Assembly (NCBI GenBank): GCA_046290225.1
Contig: JBKAGE010000041.1
Location: 1-64,000 of the forward strand
Length of the DNA: 64,000 bases
From: Bradymonadia bacterium
GTDB taxonomy: Bacteria > Myxococcota_A > Bradymonadia > UBA7976 > UBA1532
Direction of reading: 5' to 3'
Shown piece by piece: positions 2,453-30,024 of the stretch (positions within the stretch are counted from its first letter, which is position 1; every line of letters begins with the position of its first letter). The notes beneath the pieces are model-generated. The model worked only from the letters and a program-made list of their open reading frames with translations. It did not search any database and was not told the origin of the DNA. The position numbers were made by a program, and so were the translations under genes.

Positions 2453-4030
2453 TCACAGCGTCTCGGTGGCTTTGATCGGATCCACTGAGGTCCCATTACG
2501 CGTCGAGGGGTGGTGCAGGCTCCACCAACGACGTGCTGCGTCTTTGCTCCAGCGTTCAATCTCGAGGGCGTGCAACGCCTCTGCGAGAGCCGCCGCCGAT
2601 GCTGGTCGATCCTCCGGGCGTTTCTCCAGACACCACATCACAATGCGCTCCAAGGCCTCGGGGATCTCGACGTCGACGATCTCCGAAGGTGGTGTGGGTG
2701 CCTCGTTCACGTGGGCCAGCATCGTGGCCATGACCGAGCGGCCCTCGAAAGGGGACTGCCCTGTGAGCAACCAGTAGGCCACCCCACCCAGAGCGTACAG
2801 ATCCGCTCGGGGGTCGACCTCGTCTCCGGTGACCATCTCGGGGGCGATGTAGGCCGGCGTGCCCGCCACCACACCCTCACGGGTCAAGCGGGCGTCTTCA
2901 GCTTTTTCGGGTGCCTGTCCCAGCGCCACGAGGCCGAAGTCGAGCACCTTCACAAAGTCGTAGTGCAGGCCGTGGTGACACAGGAACAGGTTGGCGGGCT
3001 TGATGTCGCGGTGCACCAGCCCTTCGGTGTGGGCTTCCGAGAGAGAGGCGCAGGCGTGTTGGAGGATGTGTACGACCCGGGCTGCGGAGATGGGCCCGAA
3101 CTGCGTGATCAGCTGGTCGAGGCTGAGGCCGTCGAGGAGCTCCATCACGTAATAGAACGAGCCATCTTCCGAGACGCCGAAGTCGTACAGCTGAATGGTG
3201 TGGGCCGACTTGAGATTCGCCGTAACCTGGGCCTCGCGCTCGAAGCGCTGTAGAGCCAGCGTATAGTGCTCGGCATTGGTCTGAGACTGAGGGGCCTTGA
3301 CGAGCTTGATGGCCGCCTCGCGGCGCAGCATCACGTGGTTGGCTCGATACACCGCCCCCATGCCGCCCTCACCGAGCTTCTCGTCGAGGGTGTATTGCCC
3401 AAGACGGGTCATGTCTCGCACCTGGCGGTGTAGATTGTAGATCACATGAGAGGTTACAGCGGTGATCAGCACGAAGGCACAGCTCATGAAAATGATGCCT
3501 TCGAAGATGTGGTCCTCCATGGTGTTGAGCTGGGGCCAGAGTCCTGCGAGCAGGCTGGCCGCGCAGGCCAGACTGATGGCCACCGTGCGCAAGGTAGGGC
3601 TCGGCACCAGAGCCGCGCGCATCGTGATGAGCATGATCATGCCGATGAGAGAGAGGGCCGGTGCGACCTGCGGGTTCTCAGCGGTGTAGGCCGTGCTCAG
3701 TAAGATGTACGTGAGGTTGAGCCACAGCGTGACCCCACCCTCGATGAGCACTACGGCGAGGCGCCCTGGTTGGCGAAAGCGTGTGATGAGCCACGTGACC
3801 AGCAGCGAGCTCGTCGCCGACCACCTGATCACGTGTGTGCTCAACGAGACGTCGGGGTAGACCCCACCAAACAGCGCCCCGACCAGGTCACCCAGGCGGG
3901 AGAACAGCTCGAGGACCAGGAGCACTTGGATATAGAGCCGTACCCGGTCGCGCAGGTGGTCGAGTCCCTCGGGGTTGGTGCTGTGGGCGGAGCGGGTCGG
4001 GGTGGGCAGGTTGAGGTGCACGGTCTTCAT
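2453..4030 (-). CDS. Membrane-anchored Hanks-type Ser/Thr protein kinase
   Basis: Several N-terminal hydrophobic helices; GEGGMGAVY, AAIK, HRDIKPAN, DFG and APE motifs. Confidence 0.93.
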   Translation of the reverse strand: MKTVHLNLPTPTRSAHSTNPEGLDHLRDRVRLYIQVLLVLELFSRLGDLVGALFGGVYPDVSLSTHVIRWSATSSLLVTWLITRFRQPGRLAVVLIEGGVTLWLNLTYILLSTAYTAENPQVAPALSLIGMIMLITMRAALVPSPTLRTVAISLACAASLLAGLWPQLNTMEDHIFEGIIFMSCAFVLITAVTSHVIYNLHRQVRDMTRLGQYTLDEKLGEGGMGAVYRANHVMLRREAAIKLVKAPQSQTNAEHYTLALQRFEREAQVTANLKSAHTIQLYDFGVSEDGSFYYVMELLDGLSLDQLITQFGPISAARVVHILQHACASLSEAHTEGLVHRDIKPANLFLCHHGLHYDFVKVLDFGLVALGQAPEKAEDARLTREGVVAGTPAYIAPEMVTGDEVDPRADLYALGGVAYWLLTGQSPFEGRSVMATMLAHVNEAPTPPSEIVDVEIPEALERIVMWCLEKRPEDRPASAAALAEALHALEIERWSKDAARRWWSLHHPSTRNGTSVDPIKATETL

Positions 4031-4087
4031 GGCCGGCAAGCTATCACAAGGGGACAGGTGGCTGTATCAGCAGCCCCGGCAGGCGCT

Positions 4088-6835
4088 TCAGCGGGCAGGC
4101 TCGGGCTCTTCGTAGAGCGCGGTGATCTCATCGGGGCTCAGGGCGCGGTCGTAGACCCGCACGTCGTCCATGCGACCGGGGAACCCGCTGAACTCATCTG
4201 GGGTGCTGCTGCTGCACTGGCTGCCGTCAGGGAAGGCCCCTGCGTAGATGCGGCAGCCATTGTCGAGGATGGCGCCGGGCTGCGTGTCGCTGCCCACGGC
4301 GTTGCCGTTGCGGTACAGCGTCAGCTCGACATCACCACCCACCTCGCGGGCGACGCCGGCGTAGTGCACCCACTCGTCATCGCTGTGACGGCCGTTGTCG
4401 CGGGCCTCGAAGCCATCGGGGTGCAGGCCGTCGAGGCGGCCGAAGGCCACACGGTCGCTCGAGGCGAAGTAGAGGTTGAAGCCGTTGCCCTTGCCCAGAA
4501 TCCGCTCCCCGTTGCCGTTGGAGTTGGCGTGGATCCAGACCGAGAAGGTGAAGGCGTTGCCGAGATCGATGTCGGCCACCGACACCAGACCCAGCTGACC
4601 GGCGTTGTTGCCGTTGAGCAGATCACCGGCCTGCTCCCCTCGGCCGAAGCGGTCCGTGGCGAAGCCGGGGTTCTCGTAGTCACCGTCGTTGCCATTGTTG
4701 CTGGCGTCATAGATGTAGCCGTTCTCCACCGAGGCTGAGTCGAAGTCGTAGTGCAGCACCAGGCCGTCCACAGCGACGCCGGAGTGGAAGCTGATGGTGC
4801 TCGGCGCCGACTCGAGATCACCGTCCCAGGCGATGACCTCGGCGGTGAAGGTGCCCGAGCGGTCGTAGCGGTGGTTCAGGGTGGCCATGGTCTGGTCTTG
4901 CTCCAGGGCCACCATCTCCAGGGGGCTGCCATCGCCCCAGTCCACCGTGAACGACTCGACCCAGTCACCGCTCTCGGCGTTCTCGTCGGCCACCGTCACC
5001 GTCAGGTGGGTGGTGAAGCCTTCGAGCTCTACTTGCAGGTCGGTCACCTCAGGGGCCACGTTTACGATGGCTTCGGTGGGGTCCGTGCCCAGCTGGTACT
5101 CCTCATAGTCGTCCACGCCGTCGTGATCGGTGTCGGTGCGCAAGGGGTTGGGGAACACGCGGCGCTCGTCGCCGGTCTCGGCGTCGGTGATGGTCCAGCC
5201 CCAGGCCTCGAGGGCGTCGCCGGCACCGTCACCGTCGGTGTCGGCGTTCTCAGGATCAGTGCCGTAGAGGAACTCGGCCCGCTCGCCGAGGCCATCGCGA
5301 TCTGCGTCGCTGATGCGCACGAGGTGCAGAATATGGCCGGACTTGAGGGTGAGCGCGTCGAAGTCGAAGCCCTCGAGGATGGGGTTGTAGTAGTCGGTTT
5401 GGGTGTCGGCGCCGCCGTCGATAGGGTAGGTGTGGGCCACGAGCCAGTAAGCGCTCTCCTCATCGCTCATCTCGATGCCGCGCACACCCGTCACGCCCTG
5501 GAAGCTCTCCCCGGGGGTGGCCTCGGCGCCGAAACGCCATGGGCTGGTGCCGGTGGTGTAGGGCACCCGCAAGATGTCGGTGAACACCTGCTGCGCCGTC
5601 ACCCCCTGACGATCGTCGCCAAGGACCGTAGCCACACGGTAGCTCTCCTGCTTGCGGGCGTCGCCGAAGTCGATGATGACCTGGGCGGTGCGGGCGTTGA
5701 TGTTGGTGGCTTCGAGTTCGAAGGAGCGCCCGTCCTGGTCGAGCACCACGCCGGTGGCGGGGGCGACCACCATGTTCCGGGAGTCGGCGAGCACATCCTT
5801 GATGGTGGGCAGGTCGACATCGGCGGCGAAGTTCAGGGGCGCCGTGGCGTCGCCCGGCAGCACCACCGTCCGGGGGAAGATGTCGAGGCCGTCGTTGTAG
5901 AAGAGGTTGCCGATCGACCCGAGCTCGAGGGGGTTGCTGGGGTCGAGGTTGTAGGCCGAGAGGCTCAAGTCTTCGAGCATGAAGGCCAGATGACCGGTGT
6001 TGCGGACCACGACGGTGGTGACCACGGCCCCGCCGGTGATTTCGACCGACTCGCTCTGCTCCCGCTCCTCGATGCGGGCGAGGGCCTCGGAGTTCTCGCG
6101 GCTCTGGTCCTGGTTCCAGTTGGTGCTGGTCTCGTTGGTGGTCGAATGGCTGAACTCGTAGCTCAGGCTGGCGCTGGCGCTCACCCCACCGAAGAGGCCG
6201 ATCTCCACCTCGGTGCTCACCTCGACACCGGCGGTGTGGGTCATTTCGACCGAGTGGGACTGGCTGCCGCCCCAACTGCGGGTGGTGCCTTCGGTGATGC
6301 TCTGCTCGTGCTCGGTGCCTACAGTGCGGCCGGTCTGGTTCCCCTCGGAGTACACCATGTAGAACTGCGGCGTGCTCGTGAGCTCGATCTCGTACTGGGG
6401 CACGTCGGCGATGAGCGGGTTGAACTGGAAGTTGTTGTTCTCGGCGTCGAAGGCTTTTTCGACCACCTCGTTGTAGTCGTCGAAGCCGTCACCATCAGTG
6501 TCGGCCACGAAGGGGTTGGTGCCGTAGCGCTCGAGCTCTTCGACGTCGGTGAGGCCGTCTTCGTCGGTGTCGAGTGTGGGGTCGATGGGCTCCACAGCCC
6601 CACCAGCGCCACCCATGGCTTCACCACCGGCGCCGCCCATGGCTTCACCGCCGGCGCCTGCCACGGCGCCTCCGCTGCCCCCCGGATCTCCCCCTGAGCC
6701 AGCTGCACCACCAGCACCACCGATGGTGCCCCCGGTGTTGTCGGCGGGGGCGGAGGTCGTGTCGTCGCCACAGGCGCTCAGGCCCATGGTCATGGCGATG
6801 CCAGCGAGCAGGGTGCGGGAAGCCTTGGTGTTCAT
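4088..6835 (-). CDS. Lipoprotein with anthrax PA/binary toxin B-like pore-forming core, Ca-binding DxDxDG repeats, PKD and LamG domains (copy 1)
   Basis: Lipobox LSAC, Gly-rich linker, DTDGDG repeats; NPLIADVP, Ser/Thr-rich hairpin, VRNTG and INARTAQVII match PA motifs; VDWGDG (PKD); FTFSVWI…WVHYAG…MDDVRVYDRALS (LamG). Confidence 0.8.
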   Translation of the reverse strand: MNTKASRTLLAGIAMTMGLSACGDDTTSAPADNTGGTIGGAGGAAGSGGDPGGSGGAVAGAGGEAMGGAGGEAMGGAGGAVEPIDPTLDTDEDGLTDVEELERYGTNPFVADTDGDGFDDYNEVVEKAFDAENNNFQFNPLIADVPQYEIELTSTPQFYMVYSEGNQTGRTVGTEHEQSITEGTTRSWGGSQSHSVEMTHTAGVEVSTEVEIGLFGGVSASASLSYEFSHSTTNETSTNWNQDQSRENSEALARIEEREQSESVEITGGAVVTTVVVRNTGHLAFMLEDLSLSAYNLDPSNPLELGSIGNLFYNDGLDIFPRTVVLPGDATAPLNFAADVDLPTIKDVLADSRNMVVAPATGVVLDQDGRSFELEATNINARTAQVIIDFGDARKQESYRVATVLGDDRQGVTAQQVFTDILRVPYTTGTSPWRFGAEATPGESFQGVTGVRGIEMSDEESAYWLVAHTYPIDGGADTQTDYYNPILEGFDFDALTLKSGHILHLVRISDADRDGLGERAEFLYGTDPENADTDGDGAGDALEAWGWTITDAETGDERRVFPNPLRTDTDHDGVDDYEEYQLGTDPTEAIVNVAPEVTDLQVELEGFTTHLTVTVADENAESGDWVESFTVDWGDGSPLEMVALEQDQTMATLNHRYDRSGTFTAEVIAWDGDLESAPSTISFHSGVAVDGLVLHYDFDSASVENGYIYDASNNGNDGDYENPGFATDRFGRGEQAGDLLNGNNAGQLGLVSVADIDLGNAFTFSVWIHANSNGNGERILGKGNGFNLYFASSDRVAFGRLDGLHPDGFEARDNGRHSDDEWVHYAGVAREVGGDVELTLYRNGNAVGSDTQPGAILDNGCRIYAGAFPDGSQCSSSTPDEFSGFPGRMDDVRVYDRALSPDEITALYEEPEPAR

Positions 6836-6916: not shown

Positions 6917-6933
6917 AGCGAAGGCCATGCCAA
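6917..6933 (-). promoter_or_regulatory. Putative sigma54 -24/-12 promoter
   Basis: Minus strand TTGGCATGGCCTTCGCT = GG-N10-GC; an equivalent site lies upstream of the paralog. Confidence 0.65.
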
Positions 6934-7054
6934 CAACGCTGGTGCATATGTGGCGTGTTTCTATGGGGTTTTGAGGGGGCGTGCGGTGAAGCGTGTCACT
7001 GACACGTGGCTGATCGATGTGCCAGTTGTGCCAGCTGTGTCACTTCAGAAAAGA

Positions 7055-10116: not shown

Positions 10117-13100
10117 TCAAGGGGCGAGCTGGAGAGGCAGCGGGTGGGTCACGGTGCTCGAGGTGGGGGTCCACGTCGAGTTCTCCGGGTCTCGGGGTCG
10201 GTAACCCACAATGCGCTCGATGATGGGCCCGCCCTCTGCCGGCTGCGCTCTGGGGTTCACCGGGGTGAAGAGCGTGTGCCCCAAGATCTTGCGCAGGCGC
10301 AAGTCGCCGACGAACGTGCGGTTGTTGGTGATGGTGGACACCAGCTCCACCTCCACCGTGGCTTCCACTCGACCATCGCCGTTCGCGTCGGCCCCTGCGG
10401 GCACCTGGAAGGTGAGGTCGCTTTCGTTGTTGATGAAGAAGTTCACGCCAGAGCCATCCTCGAACCGCAGCCGGGCGAAGAGGTTGTCGAGGGAGGCGGT
10501 GACGTCTTCTTCGAGGGTCACCGTGCCGAACAGATCGATGCCCCAGATGGTGGCCTCGAGGGTGCCGATGCCCATGTCGAAGATCTGGCGGTTACCGATC
10601 ATGTTCGTCGGGGGGCCTCTGCGCTGGCGCATGTTGCCTGTGGGGTTCCCCGGGGCGGTGACGATGAGGGCGGGGATCCCCAGGCGCTGCATGGCCAGAT
10701 CGGCGTAGCTGTCCCACGGCACCCGCTCGTCGATGAGGACGGTGCGCCACGCGGGGCCCGTACCGCGATAGGTGCGCTTGTCGGCGCTCGCCACGCCCGT
10801 GACCGTTTCGCCGCGGTCGTAGAAGGTGCGCTCGAAGACCGGTCGCACCGAGAACGGCCCCTCGTTGCCTTCCTGGCAGAGCCCCACGCAGGAAGTGAAG
10901 CGGGCGGCGAAGTTGTTCAGTACCAGGCTGGCTCTCAGGAAATACTCCGGCAGGATCGCAGACATGACGCCACCGTCGAGCGCGGTGAAGTTGCTGCTCA
11001 CCCGGATGTTCCGGCCCGGGACGATGCGATCGGGGATGGTGATGTTGATCTCCACGGGCCAGGTCATGCCCAGGCTGCCGGAGTCGTAGTAGCCCTCGAG
11101 GCCGAAGTCCACAGAGCCCGTGGCAGAGACCGTGGCCCGGATGGGGCCGGTGTTGATGCCGAAGTCCTGGTCGCGACCGGTGATCGAGAGGCCACTGAGG
11201 GGGAACCGCAAGCGTTCTTGGGCTTGGGGTCCGGCGAGGCCCTGGTAGCGCACGAAGTAGGTGTGCCGGAACGTCGTCGTCAGCGACTCCAGGTCGCCCA
11301 CCGTCACGGTGAGATCCAGCGCCGTGGCGTTGCCTGCGGGATCAGTAGCCGTGAGCACCATGTCGATGGTGGGAGTGCGCTCGAAGTCCAGCGCCTCGCC
11401 GTTGATCAGTCGCACAGTGCCGTCTTCGAGCAGTTCGAACTGACCCGAAGGGTCGCTCAGGGTGAGCGTGGGGGTCAGACCTTCGGGGTCTGTCGCCACG
11501 TAGCGATGCAGCACCCGCCCCTGCTCCACGGCTTCTTGCACCGTGAAGGCCGTGGGCGTGCCCATGGGGAAGAACGGCGGCTCGTCGACGTTGCTCACCC
11601 GCACCGTGAGCGTGCGCTCGGTGGCGATGTTGTCGTTGTTGGTGATGATCGCCCGCACATCGAAGATCGGGTTCTGCTCGAAGTTGGGCGATCCCCCGGG
11701 GGCGACGCGCACCACGCCGTTGCCGTCGACGGTGAGGGTGTTGGAGGCGTCGATCAGCTGGTAGCTGGCGATGCCGGCGATGTCAGAGGCCTGCAGATCG
11801 CCCACTGGATCGCTCTCGAGCAAGGTGAGGCCCTGGGTCTCGATGGTGGGGGCGAGCAGCACGTTGGCGTCGCCGCGGACCATCAGCTTCACCGGGCCGT
11901 CGTCGAAGCGACGCCAGACCAGGCCGTCCACCGTGGTGAGGGGGCCCACGACCCAGCCGGAGCCGCTGGCGACGACGGTGTCTTCAGCGTTGCCGGTGAC
12001 CCACAGAGTGCGGGCACCGCCGGTGTTGCGCATGATGCGTGGGGCGTCCACGACCAGGCGATCTGCACCGGCGGCGGTGAGGTCGATGCGCTCGATGTTG
12101 CGCACCCTGCCGTTGAGCTGGGTGAGATCGAGGGCGATCCCGCCGGCGCTGCGCAAGGTGTCGAGGCCGGGGCCGCCGTCGACACGGCGGAAGGCGGTGT
12201 CGCTGATGATGATGGTGTCTTCACCGCGGCCGCCGTTGATGGCGTCGTCGCCGCCCTGGCCATCGATGGTGTCGTCGCCTCCCTGGCCGACGATCACATC
12301 GGCGCCGGCGGTGCCCGTGAGGGTCTCTGCAGAGGCGCTCCCGCGTACGGTGACGTCGCCGCGATCGTCGCGACCGAAGTAGACCATGACCGCGCCGCCC
12401 TCGGCTCGGGCGGGGGCGCCGACCACGATGTCGGCGAGGCCGTCGCCGTTGACGTCGCCCACGTCGACCGAATGGCCGAAGCGGCTCGCAGACCAGGGGC
12501 CGTCGAGGGTGAAGCCCTCACCGGCGTTGACGAGATCGTTCCACAAGGGGGTGGGGGCGTCGGGGCGGCCGTAGACCACGATGACCTGACCCTGGCTGTT
12601 GTTCCACTCGGGGTGACCCACCACGATGTCGTCGTAGCCGTCGCCGTTGATGTCGCCCATGGCCCCCTGGAACGTCCGCGGCCCTGGGATCGCGTCGATG
12701 GCGAAGCCCCCGTTGCCCGCCACCAGCTGGTTGATGCTGGGCAGGGCGCGATCTGCGCGGCCGAAGAGGCCCACCAGCTCGGTTTGGCCGTTGGGCCGCA
12801 GGGTGGAGTAGATCAGATCGTCGAGGCCGTCGCCGTTGAAGTCGCCTCCACTCGCCGCCATGTTCCGCGCCTGTGAGCGACCCTCCGCGAGCTGGTTCAC
12901 CGCGGTGTACGACGGGATGAAGTTGGCGCCGAAGGGCACGCTGGTCTCCCGGCCGTCGGTGAGATCGATGCGGCGGGTGCTCTCACGGCCCCAGATGACG
13001 TAGCTGGTGGTCGAAGGCCAGTACGAGGTGGGGTTGAGCCACAAATCGCCCAGACCGTCGCCGTCGAGATCGCCCCCGTCGCCGAAGTACTGCCCCCACT

Positions 13101-18542: not shown

Positions 18543-19101
18543 AGCTCTCTGTGTCTGGGCGATGAGGTAGGCTGTGGCTGGGCCTTTGTAGGCAGTCGTC
18601 GCTGCGCTCCGCCTGCGTAGGCAGCTCTGTCGGCCGGCCTTCGGCCCGCCTTGGAGCTGCGTACACGTCGGTACACTCGCTGGCGCGAGCAGGCCTCCGG
18701 GTAGGCAGGGTCGCTCAGGGCTTCGCCCTGTTTGCTCGCTCCCCTGCGTAAAAAGTCAGTTCTGGTGTGACTTTGAGGGCACCCCCAATACTGTTGGGGC
18801 TTTCGCCGAGCCTTGGGACACAGGAGCTTACAGGTTCGCGGTAGGTCGAATCCCGGGGGGGTTCAGCAACAAGAAACAGAAGAAGCTCTTTACGCAGGGG
18901 AGCGAGCAAACAGGGCGAAGCCCTGAGCGACCCTGCCTACCCGGAGGCCTGCTCGCGCCAGCGAGTACGTCGACGTGTACGCGCCAGACGAGGCGCATCG
19001 AAGATGTGCCGAAGGCCCGGCGCCTACGCAGGCAGAGCGAAGCGATGACTGCCTACAAAGGCCCAGCCACAGCCTACCTCATCGCCCAGACACAGAGAGC
19101 T
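18543..19101. repeat. ~560-bp palindromic element (~210-bp imperfect inverted arms, ~135-bp spacer)
   Basis: AGCTCTCTGTGTCTGGGCGATGAGGTAGGCTGTGGCTGGGCCTTTGTAGGCAGTC at 18543 is mirrored ending at 19101; inner arms 18661-18752 and 18889-18980 are also near-perfect. Confidence 0.85.
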
Positions 19102-19106
19102 GAGTG

Positions 19107-21824
19107 TCAGCGGAAGCTGTCAGGCTCGAGGTAGAGGGCAGAGATCTCTTCAGGGCTCAGAGCGCGGTTGTAGACCCGCACGTCGTCCATCAGCCCCGGG
19201 AAGCCGCTGAACTCGTCCGCCCTGGAGTCGTTGCACTGGTCACCGTCAGGGAAGGCCCCAGCGTAGATGCGGCAGCCATTGTCCACGATGAGGCCCGGCA
19301 TGTTCGCCGAGGCCACGCTCTCGCCGTTGCGGTAGAGGGTCAGCTGGGTCGAGCCGTCCATGGGCAGGGCTACGCCCACATAGTGCGTCCACTCGTTGTC
19401 GGCGTGGGTGCCCATGTCCCGAGCTTCAGCACCATCAGGCTGGAGCCCATCGAGGCGACCGAAGGCCACCTTGTTGCTCGTGGCGAAGTAGAGGTTGAAG
19501 CCGTTGCCCTTGCCCAGAATCCGCTCTCCGTTGCCTCGGGAGTCAGCGGAGATCCAGACCGAGAAGGTAAAGGCGTTGCCCAGGTTCACGTTGCGCACCG
19601 ACACCAGGCCCAGGTTGTCTGCTTCGTTGTTGTTGAGCAGATCGCCAGCGCGCTCGCCGCGGCCGAAGCGGTCAGTGCCGAAGGCCGGGTTGTCGTACTC
19701 CCCGTCGTTGTTGGCGTTGCTGGCGTCTTCCATGGTTTGGCCGTTCACGCTCTGCCGATCGAAGGTGTAGTGCAGCAGCAGATCTTGAGTCGGCACCTGT
19801 GGCTCGAACGTGCGGATCGTCGGCTCCGAGGCGAGGGCGCCGTCCCAGGCCATGACCTCGATGGAGAACGTCTCAGAGCGGTTGTAGACGTGCTCCACGG
19901 TGACCTGGTTCATGCCCTCCTCGAGGAGCACCACCTCGTCTCTGCCATCACCCCAGTTGATGCGGACCTCTTCCACGCGGTCACCAATGTTGGCGTTGGG
20001 ATCGTCCACAGTCACCGTCAGGATCGCCGCCACCCCGCGGCTGTCGATGCGCAGGTCGGTGATCTCCGGGGCCAGGTTGAGCGCGCCGTCGGTGGGATCA
20101 GTGCCCGCCTCGAACTCGTCGCAGTCGCTGACGGTGTCGCCGTCGGTGTCGATCGCCAGGGGGCTGGGGAACACGCGGCGCTCTTCGCCGGTCTCTTCGT
20201 CGGTGATGATCCAGCCACCGGCCTCCAGTGAGTCGGAGCAGCCATCACCGTCGGTGTCGGGGTTCTCGGGATCAGTGCCATAGAGGAATTCGGCGCGGTC
20301 GCCGAGGCCATCGCGATCCATGTCCTCGATGTAGACGAGGTGCAGGATGTGGCCCGACTTGAGCACCAGGCCGTCGAAGTCGAAGTCCTCGACGATGGGG
20401 TTGTAGTAGTCGGTCTCGGTGCCAGCGCCCGCTTCGGTGGGGTAGGTGTGGGCCACGATCCAGTATGCGCTGCCAGGATCGTTCATCTCGACCCCGCGCA
20501 CTGCGGTGACGCCGGTGAAGCTGTCGGTGGGGGCATCGTTGGTGTCAAAGCGCCATGGACTGGTGCCGGTGGTGTAGGGCACCCGCAAGATGTCGGTGAG
20601 CACCTGCTGCGCCGTCACCCCCTGGCGATCGTCACCGAGGGCCGTGGCCACGCGGTAGCTCTCCTGGGCTCGGTTCTGACCGAAATCGAGGATGACCTGA
20701 GCGGTGCGGGCGTTGATGTTGGTGGCTTCGAGCTCGAAAGAGCGCCCATCCTGGTCGAGCACCACGCCCGTGGCCGGGGCCACCACCACGTTGCGAGAGT
20801 CAGCGAGCACATCTTTGATGGTGGGCAGGTCGACCTCGGCGGCAAAGTTCAAAGGCGCCGTGGTGTCACCGGGCAGCACCACCGTCCGGGGGAAGAGATC
20901 AGCGCCGCTGTAGAAGAGGTTGCCGATCGACCCGAGTTCGAGGGGGTTGCTGGGGTCGAGGTTGAAGGCCGAGAGGGTCAGATCTTCGAGCAGGAAGGCG
21001 ATGTGACCCGTGTTCTCCACCACGACGGTGGTGGCCACGGCCCCGCCGGTGATCTCCACCGACTCGCTCTCTTCGGTCTGCTCGATTCGGGCCAGCGCGT
21101 TGGTGTTCTCGCGGCTCTGATCCTGGTTCCAGTTGGTGCTGGTCTCATTGGTGGTCGAATGACTGAACTCGTAGCTCAGGCTCGCGCTGGCGGTGGTGCC
21201 ACCGGTGAGCCCGAACTCGTGCTCCACGCTGATTTCGACGCCGGTGGTGTGGGTCATTTCGACCGAGTGGGACTGGCTGCCGCCCCAGCTGCGGGTGGTG
21301 CCCTGGGTGATGCTCTGCTCGTGCTCGGTGCCTACAGTACGACCCGTCTGATTGCCCTCGGAGTACACCATGTAGAACTGCGGCGTGCTCGTGAGCCGAA
21401 TCTCGTACTGGGGCACGTCGGCGATGCGCGGGTTGAACTGGAAGTTGTTGTTCTCGGGATCGAAGGCTTTTTCGACCACCTCGTTGAAGTCATCAAAACC
21501 GTCGCCATCAGTGTCGGCTACGAGAGGGTTGGTGCCGTGCTGGTTGATCTCGTCTACGTCGGTGAGGCCATCACCATCGGTGTCGAGATCAGGGTCGATC
21601 ATGCCCCCGGCACCACCTTCACCAGCACCACCGGCCTCGCCGCCCGCGCCACCCATCATCTCACCACCAGCGCCACCGCCGGCGCCCCCGGCCATGCCGC
21701 CTGCGCCACCGGCCATGCCGCCGGTGTTGCCGCCCGGGTCGGAAGAGCTGTCGTCTCCACAGGCGCTCAGGCCCATGGTCATTGCGATGCCGGCGAGAAG
21801 AGTGTGGGTGGTCCTGGTATGCAT
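19107..21824 (-). CDS. Lipoprotein with anthrax PA/binary toxin B-like core, PKD and LamG domains (copy 2)
   Basis: Close full-length paralog of 4088-6835 with the same motifs. Confidence 0.8.
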   Translation of the reverse strand: MHTRTTHTLLAGIAMTMGLSACGDDSSSDPGGNTGGMAGGAGGMAGGAGGGAGGEMMGGAGGEAGGAGEGGAGGMIDPDLDTDGDGLTDVDEINQHGTNPLVADTDGDGFDDFNEVVEKAFDPENNNFQFNPRIADVPQYEIRLTSTPQFYMVYSEGNQTGRTVGTEHEQSITQGTTRSWGGSQSHSVEMTHTTGVEISVEHEFGLTGGTTASASLSYEFSHSTTNETSTNWNQDQSRENTNALARIEQTEESESVEITGGAVATTVVVENTGHIAFLLEDLTLSAFNLDPSNPLELGSIGNLFYSGADLFPRTVVLPGDTTAPLNFAAEVDLPTIKDVLADSRNVVVAPATGVVLDQDGRSFELEATNINARTAQVILDFGQNRAQESYRVATALGDDRQGVTAQQVLTDILRVPYTTGTSPWRFDTNDAPTDSFTGVTAVRGVEMNDPGSAYWIVAHTYPTEAGAGTETDYYNPIVEDFDFDGLVLKSGHILHLVYIEDMDRDGLGDRAEFLYGTDPENPDTDGDGCSDSLEAGGWIITDEETGEERRVFPSPLAIDTDGDTVSDCDEFEAGTDPTDGALNLAPEITDLRIDSRGVAAILTVTVDDPNANIGDRVEEVRINWGDGRDEVVLLEEGMNQVTVEHVYNRSETFSIEVMAWDGALASEPTIRTFEPQVPTQDLLLHYTFDRQSVNGQTMEDASNANNDGEYDNPAFGTDRFGRGERAGDLLNNNEADNLGLVSVRNVNLGNAFTFSVWISADSRGNGERILGKGNGFNLYFATSNKVAFGRLDGLQPDGAEARDMGTHADNEWTHYVGVALPMDGSTQLTLYRNGESVASANMPGLIVDNGCRIYAGAFPDGDQCNDSRADEFSGFPGLMDDVRVYNRALSPEEISALYLEPDSFR

Positions 21825-21915: not shown

Positions 21916-21932
21916 GGCGAAAGTCATGCCAA
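21916..21932 (-). promoter_or_regulatory. Putative sigma54 -24/-12 promoter
   Basis: Minus strand TTGGCATGACTTTCGCC = GG-N10-GC. Confidence 0.65.
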
Positions 21933-22047
21933 TTGTCGCAGAATTTCTCGGGTCAGTGTTTTCGGTGGGTTATGGCGCTGTTCAAGGTGTGGGTCGATGG
22001 CACAGAGCCTGAGAAAGTGCCAGATGTGCCGATGTGTGTGACACCTC

Positions 22048-23820: not shown

Positions 23821-26800
23821 TCAGGGTTCCTCGGGGGGCGGCGGGGGGGTCAACTGCAGGGGCAGCTCGAACGAGCGCCCCGGCGCCGTGGGGGTCCAGG
23901 CCGCGGGCATGGGCTCGGTCACGGGGTTGCGCACCACCGTGTCGAAGAATGGGCCGGCCTCACGGGTCGGGAAGGCGGGGTTGCTGGGCTGGAAGATCAC
24001 ATGGCCGGCGAGCCAGCGCAGGCCCATCTCGATGTCGAGGTGGCGGTTGTTCACGGCGCTGGCCCGCATGTCCACGCTGATGGAGGCCTGCACCCGGCCA
24101 TCTCCGTTCACGTCGGCCCCAGCGGGGATCTGCACGTTGGCCGGCGTGCCGACATCGAAGGTCACCATTGAGCCGTCTTCGAGGGTCATGGTGGCCTCGA
24201 CGCCGTCGAAGGTCATGGTGATGTCTTCGTCGAGGTGGATGAAGCCGAAGACGTTCATGCCGTAGATGGTGGCCGTGAGCGTACCTCCGCCGATGTCGAT
24301 GATCTGTCGGTTGCCGACGAGCCCAGCCCCCGGCAGCGTCCGCCGACCGCCGGTGTCCGGCGGTGCGGGCAACAGGAGTAGACCCCCAGGGACCCCGGTT
24401 TGTTGGAGGATGTAGTTGATGTAGTCGTCCCAGGGGATCTCCTCACGCACGATGCGGGTGCGCCAGGCCTCCCCCGTGCCTCGGAGCGTGCGGCGATCTG
24501 CGCTCACCGTGCCCTCCACGATCTCGGGGAAGTCGGTGAAGATCCGCTCGAAGAGAGGCTGTTGGGTGAAGGGGCCGATGGCGAGCTCCTGGCAGCCGCC
24601 GACGCAGGCCCGCATGCGGACGGCGAAGTTGTTCATGAGGGCCCGCACCGTCACCGAGTAGTTCGGTAGACCTGCCCGCAGCCGTGCACCCTCAAGCATG
24701 GTGAAGCTGCTGGTGATGGCCACGTTCTGCCCCGGCACGATGCGGTCGGGGATCGTGATGCTCACTTCGACCGGCCACTCTGCGGCCATGCGCCCGGTGT
24801 CGTAGTAGCCTTCGAGGCCCAGGGCGAGCTGCCCGGTGCGGAGCACATCCACGTTCACAGGGCCCACGGGTCCGGTGAGGAGGCTCCGCTCCCCGTCGAT
24901 CTGAATCCCCGAGAGGGGGATGGGCGCCCGCTGGGTTTCACCGCCCACGAGGCTCTGGTTCGCGATCACATAGGTGTGCCGGAACCGCGTCGTGAGGGAC
25001 TCAAGGTTGGTGACGGTCACCCTGATGTTCACCTCGTTGGCGTTCCCCGAGGGGTCTGTCGCCGTCAGCACGAGATCGATGGTGGGGGTGCGCTCGAAGT
25101 CGATGGCTTCGGCGGTGGCCACCTGCAGCGTGCCGTCGGCGAGCAGCTCGAAGGCCCCCGTAGGATCAGTCAGCTCGAGAGTGGGGCTCAAACCTTCAGG
25201 ATCAGTGGCTACGTAGCGGTGCAGTACTCTGCCGTGCTCCACGGCCTCTTGCACCTCGAAGGCCGTCGGTGTGCCTGGGGCGAAGACCGGGGCCTCGTCG
25301 ACATTGCTCACCCGCACTGTGATGGCGCGGCGAGTGGCGACGCCGTCGTCGTCGGTGATGACGGCTACCACGTCGAAGGTCGGGTTCTGCTCGAAGTTGG
25401 GATCACCGCCAGGGGCCACCCGCACCACGCCGTTCGCGTCCACCGTGAGGGTGCCCGAGGCGTCTTCCAGGGCGTATGCTGCGATGGCGCCGTCGTCGGT
25501 GGCGCGCAGATCACCCACGGCGTCGCCGGGCAGGGCAGTCTCGAGCAGCGTCAGGCCCGTCGTGAAGACGCTCGGGGCGAGCAGCACTTGAGGCTCACCC
25601 TGGACCATCAGCCGCACCGGACCATCATCGAAACGTCGCCAGGTTTGTCCCTCGAGCACCATCTCACTCCCCGTCACCCAGCCCGAGCCGCTGGCGACCA
25701 CTGTGTCCTCGGCGCTGCCGGTGACCCACAGAGTGCGGGCGCCGCCGGTGTTGCGCATGATGCGCGGGGCGTCCACCACCAGGCGATCTGCACCGGCGGC
25801 GGTGAGATCGACGCGCTCGATGTTGCGCACCTTGCCGTTGAGCGCGGTGAGGTCGACCACCAGGCCCCCAGCGGTCCTCAGAGTGTCGGTCCCGGGGCCA
25901 CCGTCGATGCGGCGGAAGGCGGTGTCGCTGATGACGATGGTGTCGTTGCCGCGGCCGCCGTTGACGGCGTCGTCGCCACCACCGCCGTTGATGGTGTCGT
26001 TGCCGCCCTGGGCGACGATGACGTCGGCAGCGCCAGTGCCCGCAAGGGTCTCGTCGTTGTCATTGCCCCGCAGCGTGATGACGCCACGATCATCGCGACC
26101 AAAGTAGACCATGACCGCACCACCCTCGGCCCGAGTGGGGGCGCCGACGAGGATGTCGGCGAGGCCGTCGCCGTTGACGTCGCCCACATCGACGGAGTGA
26201 CCGAAGCGGCTTGAAGGCCAGGGCCCGTCGAGGGTGAAGCCCTCACCGGCGTTGACGAGGTCGTTCCAGAGCGGAGTAGGGGCGTCGGGGCGCCCGTAGA
26301 CTACGATGACCTGACCCTGGCTGTTGTTCCACTCGGGGTGGCCCACCACGATGTCGTCATAGCCGTCGCCGTTAAGGTCGCCCATGGCACCCTGGAACGT
26401 CCGCGGCCCTGGGATCGCGTCGATGGCGAAGCCCCCGTTGCCCGCCAGCAGCTGGTTGATGTTGGGCACGACACGATCAGCGCGGCCGTAGACGCCCACC
26501 AGCTCAGTCTGGCCGTTGGGCCGCAGGGTGGAGAAGATCAAATCGTCGAGGCCGTCGCCGTTGAAGTCGCCTCCGCTCGCCGCAGTGTTCCGGGCCTGTG
26601 AGCGGCCCTCGACCACCTGGTTCACCACAGTGAACGAGGGCGTGAAGTTGCCAAAGAGCAGGCTGGTCTGCGTGCCATCCGTGATGTCGATGCGGCGGGT
26701 GGTTTCGCGGCCCCAGACCACGTACGAGGTGATGGAGGGCCAGTACGAGGTGGGGTTGAGCCACAGATCACCCAGGCCGTCGCCGTCGAGATCGCCGGCG

Positions 26801-29800
26801 CTGCCGAAGTACTGCCCCCACTCGGAGGTGAAGCCGTCAAAGCGGGGCGTGGGCAGGGTGAAGTCGATGACGCGGCCCTGCTGCAGCGAGGCTACGTCGG
26901 AGATGTCCACCTGGCCGATGTTGGTGCCCCCGGGCAGGATGTACATGTTCCCAATCTTGTTGGCACCCTGCGTCGGGGCGCTGGCGACGAGATCGTCGTA
27001 GCCGTCGCCGTTGAAGTCCTGTACCAGCACCATCCGCGTGCCCAGCGTGTCGCCGCCGTCGGGGACCGTGCGGCCGGTGCCGCCGATGAGGGTGTCCACA
27101 CCGCCCAGGCCCTGCAGCCCGCTCGCCGAGGCTCCGGAGATCATGTAGGCGCGGCCGGCGATGGGATCACCAGCGGCGCTCAGGGCTGCGGGGGCGCCCA
27201 CGGCAAAGTCGGGCACCGCGTCGTCGTCGAAGAACCGTGCCCCTCGGGTCACCGAGTAGCCGAAGACGTCGCCGAAGGGTTGGGTGTCGAGACTACCAAC
27301 GCTGAGGGACGTGAGCACGTTGCCGTACCGGGCCACCGCGCGGCCGCCAGACTCACCGTTGAGCGTGAACAGCGCCACGCCGCCTCTGGGTTGCTGGTCT
27401 GCAGTGTCTCGTTTGCCAGCGATCGCATAGACCTGGCCCGCCTCGTTGGCCTCTGGCGTCGGCGCGGCGTTCGGCGCGCCGACGAGCATGTCGTTGAGGC
27501 TGTCGCCGTCGAGGTCAGCAGAGACCGACACCTGCGCACCAAAGGCGTCACCGGCGGTGCCGCTCAGGATGTCGTACGTCCCACGGTTGACCACCGAGGG
27601 CCGGGTGGTGGTGAAGGATCCCAGGCGACCGCCGGGGCTCAGCGCCGCGGCGCGACACTCAACGAGATCGCCGTCGGCGAGGTTGTCGGTGACATAGGTA
27701 GAACCCGACTGTGCTTCGTCGAGAACGTCGTTGACGTACCATTCGTACACGATCTCGCTGGGATCGCCGCAGTTCGTGCTCAGTGGGGTGGCGGTGCAGC
27801 GGATCACCTCGCCGATGACGGGCTGGGCGGGGCCGGTGGTGTAGTCGGTGACGGTGGCCACGCCAGCGAGCACGGTGAGGGTCGGCGTGCTGAGCTCCCA
27901 GGTGGCGCCGGGGGGACCGACGGTGGCGGTGCAGGTGAGGGTGTCCCCGATGTCGAGGTTGTCGAGGGTGTCGGGGTTGCCGTTGACGGGCTGGCCGTTC
28001 AGGGTCCAGCGGTACGACACGGGGAGCGGGTTGGCGGGATCGATGATGTCGAGGCCCGCAGCGGCGCAGGTGAAGGGGTCGCAGAAGGTACCCTGAGGTG
28101 AGGTGATGCTGGCAGTGACGCCCACCACGACATATCGAGCAGCGCCGAGCGATTCGACAAAGCCGCCGTCGGGGTTCTCTACGTAGATGTCGATGAGGCC
28201 CACCCCCGCAGCGCTCGCAGGGGGCGTCACGGTGAGCATGCCCTCGTCCACGCGGTCCACGGCCACCTCGGTGTCGTTGAGCCACACACGCACCTCAGGC
28301 TGGAAGTTCGACCCCGTCAGCGTGATGTCCACGTCGCCGATGTGAGAGACCTCCAAGGGCGCCACGGTGTCGAGTACCGGAGGCTCTACGAAGCACACCC
28401 CGCCACGGCAATTGAGACGCGCGCAGTCTTCATGGCCCACGCACACCTGATTGCCCAGGCAGCCCGGACAATCACCGCCACAATCCACGTCCGTCTCGGT
28501 GCCGTTGCGCACGCCATCGTCACAGGCCGGCGCCGCACAAGCGTCACCGGCGCACACCCCGCTCTCACAGAGACTGGGCTCGGCGCAGGGTGTACCTGTG
28601 GGGCACAGCGGGCAGGGCCCGCCACAGTCCAGGGCGAGCTCGCCTCCGTTCTGCACGCCGTCGTCGCAGGCGGGCACCGCACAGGCCCCCCCTGTGCACA
28701 CGCCGCTCGCGCAGCTGTCCGGGCCAGCGCAAGGGGTGCCCGCGAGGCACAGCGGGCAGGGGCCGCCACAGTCTACGGCGGCCTCGGCGCCGTTGCGCAC
28801 GGTGTCGTCGCAGGTGGGCGCCGCGCAGGCCCCCTCGGCGCACACGCCAGAAGCGCAGTCACCCGGCTGAGCGCAGCTCAGGCCATCGGCGCAGGTGGGG
28901 CAGGGGCCGCCACAGTCCACGTCGGTCTCGATGCCGTTGCGTACGCCGTCGTCACATGCGGGCGCTGCGCAGTTGCCCTGAGCGCACACGCCGCTCTGAC
29001 AGTCATTTGGCTGGACACACAGGGCGCCATCGGCGCAGGCGGGGCAGGAGCCACCACAATCAACATCGATCTCGTCGCCGTTGCGCACGGTGTCGTCACA
29101 GGTGGGCGCCGCGCAGGCGCCGTCGGGGCAGACCCCCGAGGTGCAATCGCTGTCTGCGATGCATGCGTCACCATCAGCGCAGGGGTCACAGGCGGGGCCG
29201 CCGCAGTCGGTGTCGAGCTCGTCGCCGTTGCGCACGGCATCGTCACAAGCAGGGGTTGCGCAGACACCATCGGGGCATACCCCCGAGGTACAATCACCAT
29301 CCTCTACGCACGCCCCACCATCGGCGCAGGGGCCACAGGTGGGGCCACCACAGTCGGTGTCGGTCTCATCGCCGTTACGCACGGTGTCGTCACAGGCGGG
29401 GGTGGCGCACACGTCATCAGTGCAGATCTGACTCTGGCAATCGCTGGGTTGAGCGCATCCCTGGTCTGCCAGACAGGGCCCGCAGATGGGGCCACCGCAG
29501 TCGACGTCCGTCTCTTCCCCGTTTTGCACCGTGTCCATGCAGGTGGGCGGAGTGCAGAAGCCGTCGACGCAGGGGATGCCGTCGCAGTCTTCAGGGGCGA
29601 GGCACTGACCGCCGGGTCCGCAGGGCGCGCATTCGGGGCCGCCGCAATCGATGTCGGTCTCATCGCCGTTCTGCATGCCGTCATCGCAGGTGGGCTCTGG
29701 GGGCATCGCATCAGGTACGACGGCATCCGGCACCATGACATCCGGCACCATGACATCCGGCACCATGACATCTGGCATCATGGCATCAGAGAGCGTCGCA

Positions 29801-30024
29801 TCTGGCTCGGGTGGCATTGCGTCGGGATCAGGTGCCAGGGCGTCAGGCTCACCGATCTGTGCGTCGGGATCACCGAGGGCTGAATCTGGCTCAAAAGGCT
29901 CCATGTCGAGCTCTGGTGTGGCGTCGACCACGACCATTGCGTCGGCTGGTGGATTACCTCCATCATTTCCGCCATCGTCACAGGCCCACAAGAGCAGGCA
30001 GAGGACAGGCCACAGTCGTTTCAT
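23821..30024 (-). CDS. Giant adhesin-like lipoprotein, copy B (PDA/PDV linker, 9 Cys-rich repeats, IPT/Ig, FG-GAP, RTX, cadherin, C-terminal domain)
   Basis: Lipobox LWAC; [17 protein letters not shown] repeats; GDxNGDGxDDxx[39 protein letters not shown] cadherin motifs. Confidence 0.88.

Follow-up and report, generated by a model that had tools for sequence, protein, structure and literature searches.

A predicted lipid-anchored, divergent variant of the PA63-type pore fold in a Bradymonadia bacterium

The closest described relatives of the protein reported here are the pore-forming B components of the family Bacterial_Exotoxin_B, which include PA63 of the anthrax protective antigen (PA), CDTb, Ib, C2-II and Vip1/Vpb1. 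A single-component protein of similar core, Vpb4 (Vip4) of Bacillus thuringiensis, kills without a partner (PMC13462110; available part of the text, as for all papers cited here by accession or preprint number). In Gram-negative bacteria, BSAP and CDCL proteins are described as signal-peptidase-II-type antibacterial pores (PMC12853789, PMC11169675, bioRxiv 10.64898/2026.08.05.742979). Here, we describe P0001, a gene on the minus strand (4088..6835) of the first 64,000 nucleotides of contig JBKAGE010000041.1 (assembly GCA_046290225.1, a Bradymonadia bacterium), a stretch referred to below as the window. The gene encodes a predicted lipoprotein of 915 residues, and sequence profiles and structure models support its assignment as a new, divergent variant of the PA63-type pore fold.

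With Bacterial_Exotoxin_B, P0001 and its family share the fold and order of domains 1'-2-3, a dual-calcium-type module, an amphipathic insertion hairpin, an acidic predicted lumen and variable C-terminal binding domains. They differ in lacking the PA14 pro-domain, in carrying a lipobox and a tether, a longer stem with predicted helix and a second calcium module, in showing no clear canonical clamp motif and, in 25 loci surveyed, no linked A component, and in their diderm host and separate tree branch. Vpb4 resembles P0001 in core fold, in being encoded by a solitary gene and in having no clear canonical clamp, but it keeps a cleavable pro-domain and a neutral lumen (PMC13462110), whereas the P0001 family has no pro-domain and a predicted acidic inner face. 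The likeness to BSAP (MACPF) and CDCL of Bacteroidales is a functional analogy only: these are likewise Gram-negative signal-peptidase-II-type proteins that reuse a pore fold of eukaryote-targeting toxins, with specificity in a variable C-terminal domain, as predicted for the P0001 family, but their pore fold appears to be a different one. BSAP-1 and the CDCLs need protease activation, and some come with immunity lipoproteins. No description of the P0001 family was found in the literature covered, subscription journals being mostly outside the search, and the available part of PMC3482391 does not mention a PA-like pore.

Relation of the core to binary-toxin B components

A preliminary description of the window, made from the letters alone, had placed a PA-like core at 5560..6565 on the basis of six motifs shared with PA domains 1' to 3. 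All six motifs are present in that order, at residues 89-100, 139-146, 202-233, 275-281, 378-388 and 397-403 (window 6571 down to 5627), and the likeness to domains 1'-3 is backed by sequence profiles and by two independent structure predictions. The span itself was drawn too narrowly, as the first motif exceeds its end by 6 bases and the PA-like region extends to about residue 510 (window ~5315).

Searched on its own with phmmer, P0001 matches C2-II over residues 87-237 (E 7e-4). A family profile of 150 sequences matches Vip1Ac1 with an E of 4.8e-7, C2-II with 1.2e-6 and PA with ~2e-5. The Vip1Ac1 match is broken into four stretches, of which three run collinear with the six motifs. Its best single stretch is the calcium motif, while further pairings, in the right order, cover the hairpin, before it the last part of domain 1' and after it the first part of domain 3. 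In hhalign comparisons with a profile of four Bacillus B components, residues 85-590 gave a probability of 98.6%, residues 147-507, without the calcium repeats, 95.9%, and residues 250-507 alone 52%. As controls, 20 column shuffles gave at most 0.9% and reversed profiles 4-6.4%.

The structural comparison uses residues 85-590 as modelled by AlphaFold2 from 92 sequences, with a predicted local distance difference test (pLDDT) score of 88.4 and a predicted template modelling (TM) score of 0.88. With this model, Foldseek returned only B components among the matches listed (Vip1Ac1, CDTb, Ib, PA, Vpb4Da2 and C2-II), with E values from 8e-11 to 3e-8; Vip1Ac1 was best (8.3e-11), and the Vpb4 structure 7mjr scored 2.9e-9. 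VIA-align, run on the Foldseek candidates with the predicted model, aligned the Ib prepore over 312 residues (Z 15.9, root-mean-square deviation (rmsd) 4.5) and the PA prepore over 323 residues (Z 15.6, rmsd 4.1), in the latter case along PA chain 174-608, which corresponds to domains 1' to 3. Taken together, the matches to PA and Ib prepores extend over 310-323 residues. For a separate model from the ESM Atlas, the nearest cluster was Binary_toxB, with a TM-score of 0.60 over 286 residues, which lies under the tool's naming bar. Other pore folds did not emerge: the MACPF/CDC fold is absent among the listed structural matches and PF01823 is unmatched in the genome, and the aerolysin fold is likewise absent among the listed matches, with only sub-threshold profile matches at the hairpin. 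A dimer prediction for residues 85-512 (score 0.01, without controls) gave no verdict and is not used as evidence.

The Pfam families gave a different picture. The preliminary description had proposed Binary_toxB, Binary_toxB_2 and Binary_toxB_3 as a check, and P0001 has no Binary_toxB match at E 0.01; the other two families gave 0 matches in the genome at E 1 and 0 among the 71 relatives scanned. PF03495 lies above its cut-off in 9/31 and 3/40 relatives, the first set having been picked partly for such matches, but not in P0001. Pfam names only LamG and the TSP3_bac calcium repeats in P0001, with PKD_4 and ETX_MTX2 (E 0.008) below threshold. Because the pro-domain is missing and the Pfam cut-offs for domains 2 and 3 are not reached, we class P0001 as a divergent variant and not as a canonical B component. 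Judged from the models, the core almost certainly has the fold of PA-type domains 1'-3, and sequence and models together support its homology to activated, pro-domain-free PA. It can probably form a pore.

Along the protein, the domains follow each other as listed here with their minus-strand coordinates. The open reading frame begins at ATG 6835, a start that was chosen because the N-terminus of a paralog in the window, P0002, agrees with it and a promoter motif overlaps the alternative ATG at 6928; this second start, which lies within the motif and is missing from the paralog, was rejected. A signal peptide with a lipobox ending in Cys22 (6770..6835, assigned by sequence pattern only) is followed by a flexible Gly/Ala-rich tether without Lys or Arg, residues 23-84 (6584..6769). 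The predicted calcium-binding module that equals PA domain 1', residues 85-146 (6398..6583), is defined by the TSP3_bac match, by invariant acidic residues and by the start of the structural match. The domain 2-like pore-forming domain, approximately residues 147-370 (5726..6397), is delimited by the models, hhalign and VIA-align. The domain 3-like putative oligomerisation domain, approximately residues 371-507 (5315..5725), is marked by the alignment of the model to PA 174-596/608 and by a collinear profile match to the domain end.

Beyond the core lies a second predicted calcium-binding module, an apparent duplicate of domain 1' (residues 508-590; 5066..5314), recognised from profile, secondary structure and DxDxDG motifs. 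It is the best-scoring stretch against domain 1' of PA and C2-II and has the same secondary-structure pattern; at least two DxDxDG motifs are present in 129/150 relatives. In the first module the acidic residues of the calcium motif are invariant in relatives, from which calcium binding is predicted. A PKD-like beta-sandwich (residues 591-686; 4778..5065), all-beta in the model, precedes a LamG/concanavalin-like domain (residues 687-910; 4106..4777). While Cys22, the Gly-rich tether and LamG (Laminin_G_3, E 1.8e-22) bear out the ends assigned in the preliminary description, its PKD domain stays below the Pfam cut-off (PKD_4, E 0.0035); it had also overlooked the second calcium module, the greater length of the stem, the paralog and the promoter motif. 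In Foldseek, the LamG model (pLDDT 94) resembles the lectin-like domains found in sialidases, in arabinanase and in binding fragments of neurotoxins, and on sequence and model grounds this domain is likely to bind a receptor.

Predicted stem and lipid anchor

The predicted membrane-spanning hairpin, residues 202-228 (6152..6232), shows a strict alternation across 150 aligned relatives, with a hydrophobic fraction of 0.72 at even against 0.04 at odd positions (permutation p 0.0001). Row by row, the alternation is found in 84/86 and 81/86 gap-free rows for the two strands, 64 gapped rows having been set aside. The two-residue periodicity continues with the same parity through residues 165-266 (6038..6343), the predicted barrel stem, where the hydrophobic fraction is 0.42 at even and 0.10 at odd positions (p 0.0001) and small polar residues account for 0.24 and 0.65, respectively. 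The parity is symmetric about a turn near residue 215, which suggests a single long hairpin. Counted from where domain 1' ends, the spacing to the invariant Asn279 is 140 residues in P0001 (family median 137, range 117-157) and 100-122 in five Bacillus B components, i.e. 18-40 residues shorter than in P0001. As a stem of 72 residues in Vpb4 forms a barrel of 92 Å in a pore 155 Å tall, with domain 1 as the cap (PMC13462110), we estimate by scaling that the P0001 barrel would be ~130 Å long. In the monomer model the hairpin tip is disordered and the flanks, residues 191-209 and 242-260, are helical at low to middling confidence.

With faces assigned by parity, the predicted inner face of P0001 carries 13 acidic and 0 basic residues. 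Across the family, acidic residues are enriched on this face (0.18 vs 0.09, p 0.01) and basic ones depleted (0.03 vs 0.08, p 0.0002). The stem is net negative in 146/150 relatives, and the remaining core is acidic too. The Vpb4 study links an acidic lumen to translocases (PMC13462110).

The canonical clamp motif, a Phe with a preceding aspartate, was not found in the P0001 alignments. Six automated alignments, from three MAFFT runs and from hhalign runs, set Phe336 on the clamp Phe, a register that lacks the preceding acidic pair and costs two large offsetting gaps. A manual register anchored at the Pro-Gly turn 327 makes the clamp loop ~14 residues shorter and fits the continuous strand 334-340 of the model, in which residue 336 is located mid-strand. 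Both conserved aromatics are frequent in the 150 relatives (Phe320 in 126, Phe336 in 134), and the loop with Asp315 and Phe320 (102/150 and 126/150) is an alternative clamp candidate.

At the N-terminus, the lipobox Cys is kept in at least 90% of aligned relatives, and the lipobox pattern occurs in 171/236 relatives compared with 0/236 in a control window (stricter pattern, 155/235). Tethers range from 3 to 620 residues with a median of 34, are no longer than 30 residues in 79/171, and measure 67 residues in P0001. A tether of 30 residues would span ~105 Å at most. Because such tethers are short against the 155 Å Vpb4 pore, the barrel of many members could presumably not insert into the anchor's own membrane without prior cleavage of the anchor.

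The absence of PA14, already stated in the preliminary description, holds: a profile of four Bacillus pro-domains matches 0 of 250 fetched proteins and 0 open reading frames of the genome, and scores an untrained control at 4.5e-12. The loss is not unique to the P0001 family, as two Bacillus cereus-group plasmid proteins, WP_065705818.1 and WP_246963626.1, also lack PA14. Like P0001, these match the core profile (97%, calcium module included); unlike P0001, they show no lipobox, have a stem spacing of 115 (in the one measured), fall to 23% once the calcium module is removed and are placed among the Bacillus rows of the tree described below. As an observation apart, the genes of PA14-less B-like proteins of the Bacillus cereus group (L135:2259-4457, L139:2256-4472) adjoin a response regulator and kinase pair.

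Mode of action

We assign a probability of about 0.52 to the reading, drawn from sequence, models and analogy, that P0001 is a predicted surface lipoprotein acting as a single-component, tethered beta-barrel pore-forming toxin against neighbouring cells. The protein would be expressed in a sigma-54-dependent manner, exported and lipid-anchored on the cell surface or on vesicles, and its PKD-like and LamG domains would bind a glycan or protein on the target cell. Seven or eight monomers would assemble into a ring, as they do in known members of the toxin family, and residues 165-266 would refold from a partly helical packing into a hairpin, giving the ~130 Å barrel with an acidic lumen. This barrel would enter the opposing membrane, or the anchor would first be cut off, because the lipid anchor is on the cap side and the tethers of many relatives are too short. 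Ion leakage would then kill or damage the target, most plausibly microbial prey or competitors.

Several observations weigh against the tethered toxin. The Foldseek TM-scores are moderate (0.31-0.43 by query) at identities of 10-18%. The model places helices at residues 191-209 and 242-260, where PA has strands; with the stem flanks helical in the monomer, a helix-to-strand change would be needed on pore formation. An acidic predicted lumen is a feature associated with translocases, though the whole core is acidic in the family, and all six automated alignments put the conserved Phe336 on the clamp Phe. The tether of P0001 itself is long enough for insertion into its own membrane. Finally, an immunity gene was not found in 25 loci, a survey in which genes below 90 residues were not considered and some shadow frames were picked.

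The same survey bears on the binary mode of action that the preliminary description had implied. No partner gene recurs in the 25 loci (open reading frames of at least 90 residues, some shadow frames) beyond kinases in 5. The Vip2-type ADP-ribosyltransferase domain PF03496 gave 0 matches in three genomes (G000, which is that of P0001, G032 and G328), with two control plasmids positive, and the lethal-factor family PF07737 was blank in a search without positive control. Since no enzymatic partner was found in the 25 loci and PF03496 is missing from the three genomes, the label 'binary' has no support.

We consider it unlikely that P0001 is instead a PA-like translocase whose pore passes a cargo protein, unlinked and so far unrecognised, into the target. 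Such a role would suit the acidic inner face depleted of basic residues, the retained calcium module and the conserved aromatics 320 and 336, which could act as a clamp; a Bacillus B component beside two EndoU genes indicates that unconventional cargo exists. However, no neighbour gene is conserved in the 25 loci, PF03496 is unmatched where the controls work (PF07737 being blank without one), no acidic pair precedes the clamp Phe, residue 336 is mid-strand in the model, and the tether would probably crowd the cap where cargo docks.

Less probable still appears a non-toxic conduit, lipid-anchored in one membrane and with its barrel in a second membrane of the own envelope or of a kin cell, which would serve exchange or export. 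Consistent with such a function, the lipobox pattern is widespread (171/236), the stem is 18-40 residues longer than in the five Bacillus B components, and neither an immunity gene nor a pro-domain was found. On the other hand, the patchiness of the family, its tandem duplications and the speed with which C-terminal domains are exchanged point to conflict more than to housekeeping, and a surface location is in keeping with the calcium repeats and the lectin-like ends.

That P0001 is an adhesin, in which the PA-like core is a retained scaffold no longer inserting into membranes, we regard as quite improbable. P0001 is located among giant FG-GAP/RTX and RCC1 surface lipoproteins, its calcium repeats resemble CglD and MtsD, at a level far below cut-off, and its C-terminal domains are of the adhesin type; yet the strict hydrophobic/polar alternation is kept across proteins of 32-60% identity, and between the paralogs no part is better conserved than domain 2 (88%). 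A superficial likeness, in which calcium repeats and an aerolysin/ETX-type Ser/Thr-rich hairpin together give a false match, is largely refuted by Foldseek, hhalign, VIA-align and the ESM Atlas and can barely be entertained: the best HMMER stretches are calcium motifs, the hairpin gives weak matches (ETX_MTX2, E 0.008; epsilon-toxin, E 0.012), Binary_toxB_2 and _3 are unmatched and residues 250-507 alone reach only 52%, but the structure matches span domains 1'-3 in order (Z 15-16, >300 residues), the profile match survives removal of the repeats, and the independent ESM Atlas model gives the same nearest family.

Locus, family and implications

The paralog P0002 (905 residues; 19107..21824, minus strand) lies 12 kb from P0001, has the same architecture and is 82% identical in the core; the two are the only core matches in the genome. 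Domain 2 is their most conserved part and the PKD-like part the most diverged (47% identity). A sigma-54-type -24/-12 motif, identified by pattern match, stands ~80-95 bases upstream of each, at 6918..6933 before P0001 and 21917..21932 before P0002 (both minus strand). Two such motifs in the window compare with 0.04 expected, a figure to be read with the facts that the pattern was set after both sites had been seen and that the sites are paralogous. The genome encodes RpoN. The motif is not general in the family, a looser pattern being found in 3/26 other core genes and well placed in 1. A scan for sigma-70 promoters and terminators found none. TGGCAC-containing short repeats upstream of both motifs (6975-7050 and 21985-22045, minus strand) are possible activator sites.

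The host is a diderm, as indicated by LpxC and MYXO-CTERM, the latter with 20 among the matches listed. A primer-motif search located no 16S gene, and the sequence features by which the host was placed as Myxococcota-type are LpxC, MYXO-CTERM and the named relatives of the protein. Downstream of P0001 and on the same strand, a membrane Ser/Thr kinase gene (2453-4039) adjoins, which is not kept beside the paralog. Two giant paralogous surface proteins with Cys-rich repeats, TIG, FG-GAP and RTX repeats are encoded at 10117 to ~18640 and at 23821-30024 (both minus strand). Their genes share 75% DNA identity over 4.7 kb; close to its 5' end, the longer gene is interrupted by an in-frame stop and a frameshift. 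One giant surface gene lies upstream of each pore gene, which suggests an old segmental duplication. A palindromic element at 18544-19100 consists of two inverted arms of ~215 bp with ~95 bp between them. On 32 contigs, arm copies of at least 150 bp number 87, with 38 as inverted pairs, and they resemble miniature inverted-repeat transposable elements or repetitive extragenic palindromes.

A search against representative sequences gave 566 clusters at E 1e-30, some by repeats only, and the full repeat-free core was present in 235/250 fetched proteins. In a scan of genome contigs, a profile found the core in 6/78 loci, the rest being mostly unrelated repeat proteins matched through the calcium repeat. 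The preliminary description had thought a homolog in a Gram-negative bacterium unusual; the Gram-negative host is borne out, while the rarity is not, P0001 being a member of a large family. Fifty AlphaFold database relatives, collected with a query that included the pro-domain, come from seven genera (PMC13462110). Close named relatives of P0001 belong to Persicimonas caeni, Polyangiales and other Myxococcota; that of the cultured predator P. caeni (WP_141195899.1) is 49% identical in the core. Labels of relatives include Myxococcota, Gammaproteobacteria, Planctomycetota and Deinococcus, and further core loci come from Zetaproteobacteria, Fibrobacter, Bacteroidales and Acidimicrobiia. None of the seven genera with AlphaFold database relatives is known to be Gram-negative. 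The distribution is patchy, with the core in 6/41 relatives and 17/401 genomes of the phylum, that of P0001 (G000) included. In a quick tree of 54 rows, for which 30 were picked at random and one Bacillus row was omitted, 48 family rows stand apart from 6 Bacillus rows with an approximate likelihood ratio support (SH-aLRT) of 99; because the tree is unrooted with long branches, no order of origin is claimed.

Members are named in databases by their LamG, PKD or calcium domain only. By their C-terminal parts, 227 relatives divide into 42 groups unrelated to one another, in which Pfam names LamG, RCC1, FG-GAP, GON, Laminin_B, Lcl_C, fn3 and PASTA domains and leaves several without a name; no enzymatic toxin domain was named by Pfam in the C-terminal parts scanned. 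Tandem copies occur in three genomes (G032, G105 and G262), and in G032 the N-terminal halves of the copies are 71-83% identical and the last 300 residues 40-54%. Among 4223 candidates, 2 short stand-alone forms were seen; both may be fragments, as one is on a 1.9-kb contig and the other has 105 residues. Single relatives show other combinations. P0188 has a non-lipoprotein signal, two PASTA domains and a C-terminal thiol-activated cytolysin binding domain, an exchange between pore families. P0123, a single record on a 4.5-kb contig, carries a CHAT (caspase-like) domain at its N-terminus, with a hydrophobic segment ahead of the pore core, and recalls protease-plus-pore defence systems. In genome G150, the core lies within a predicted lipoprotein of 3120 residues (L124:4784-14143, minus strand). 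Outside the family, two EndoU-domain genes lie immediately upstream of a B component on a Bacillus mycoides plasmid (L132:933-4701) and may form with it a binary system with nuclease cargo.

We tentatively propose, as a conjecture of limited likelihood, that Myxococcota, Planctomycetota, Deinococcus and other bacteria, most of them Gram-negative, hold a large, unrecognised clade of PA63-like pores that are lipid-anchored and pre-activated and bridge two membranes, with the anchor on the cap side in the producer or its vesicles and the extra-long barrel in the envelope of prey or rival. If true, the anthrax-toxin pore fold would here have its first antibacterial and contact-dependent use, and the two-membrane clade would be a candidate reservoir for the origin of the Bacillus and Clostridium translocases. 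The P0001 family would represent a much wider, diverse branch without the pro-domain cap, its members concealed by names such as 'LamG domain protein'. With it, one could test how a pore is kept in check when there is no pro-domain, whether a lytic pore or a translocase came first in this fold, and whether the fold is used between bacteria. For the bradymonabacteria, in which contact-dependent predation is described, with no diffusible toxin and no type VI secretion system found according to the available part of the text (PMC11509652), the P0001 family may be a candidate for contact-dependent killing and kin discrimination.

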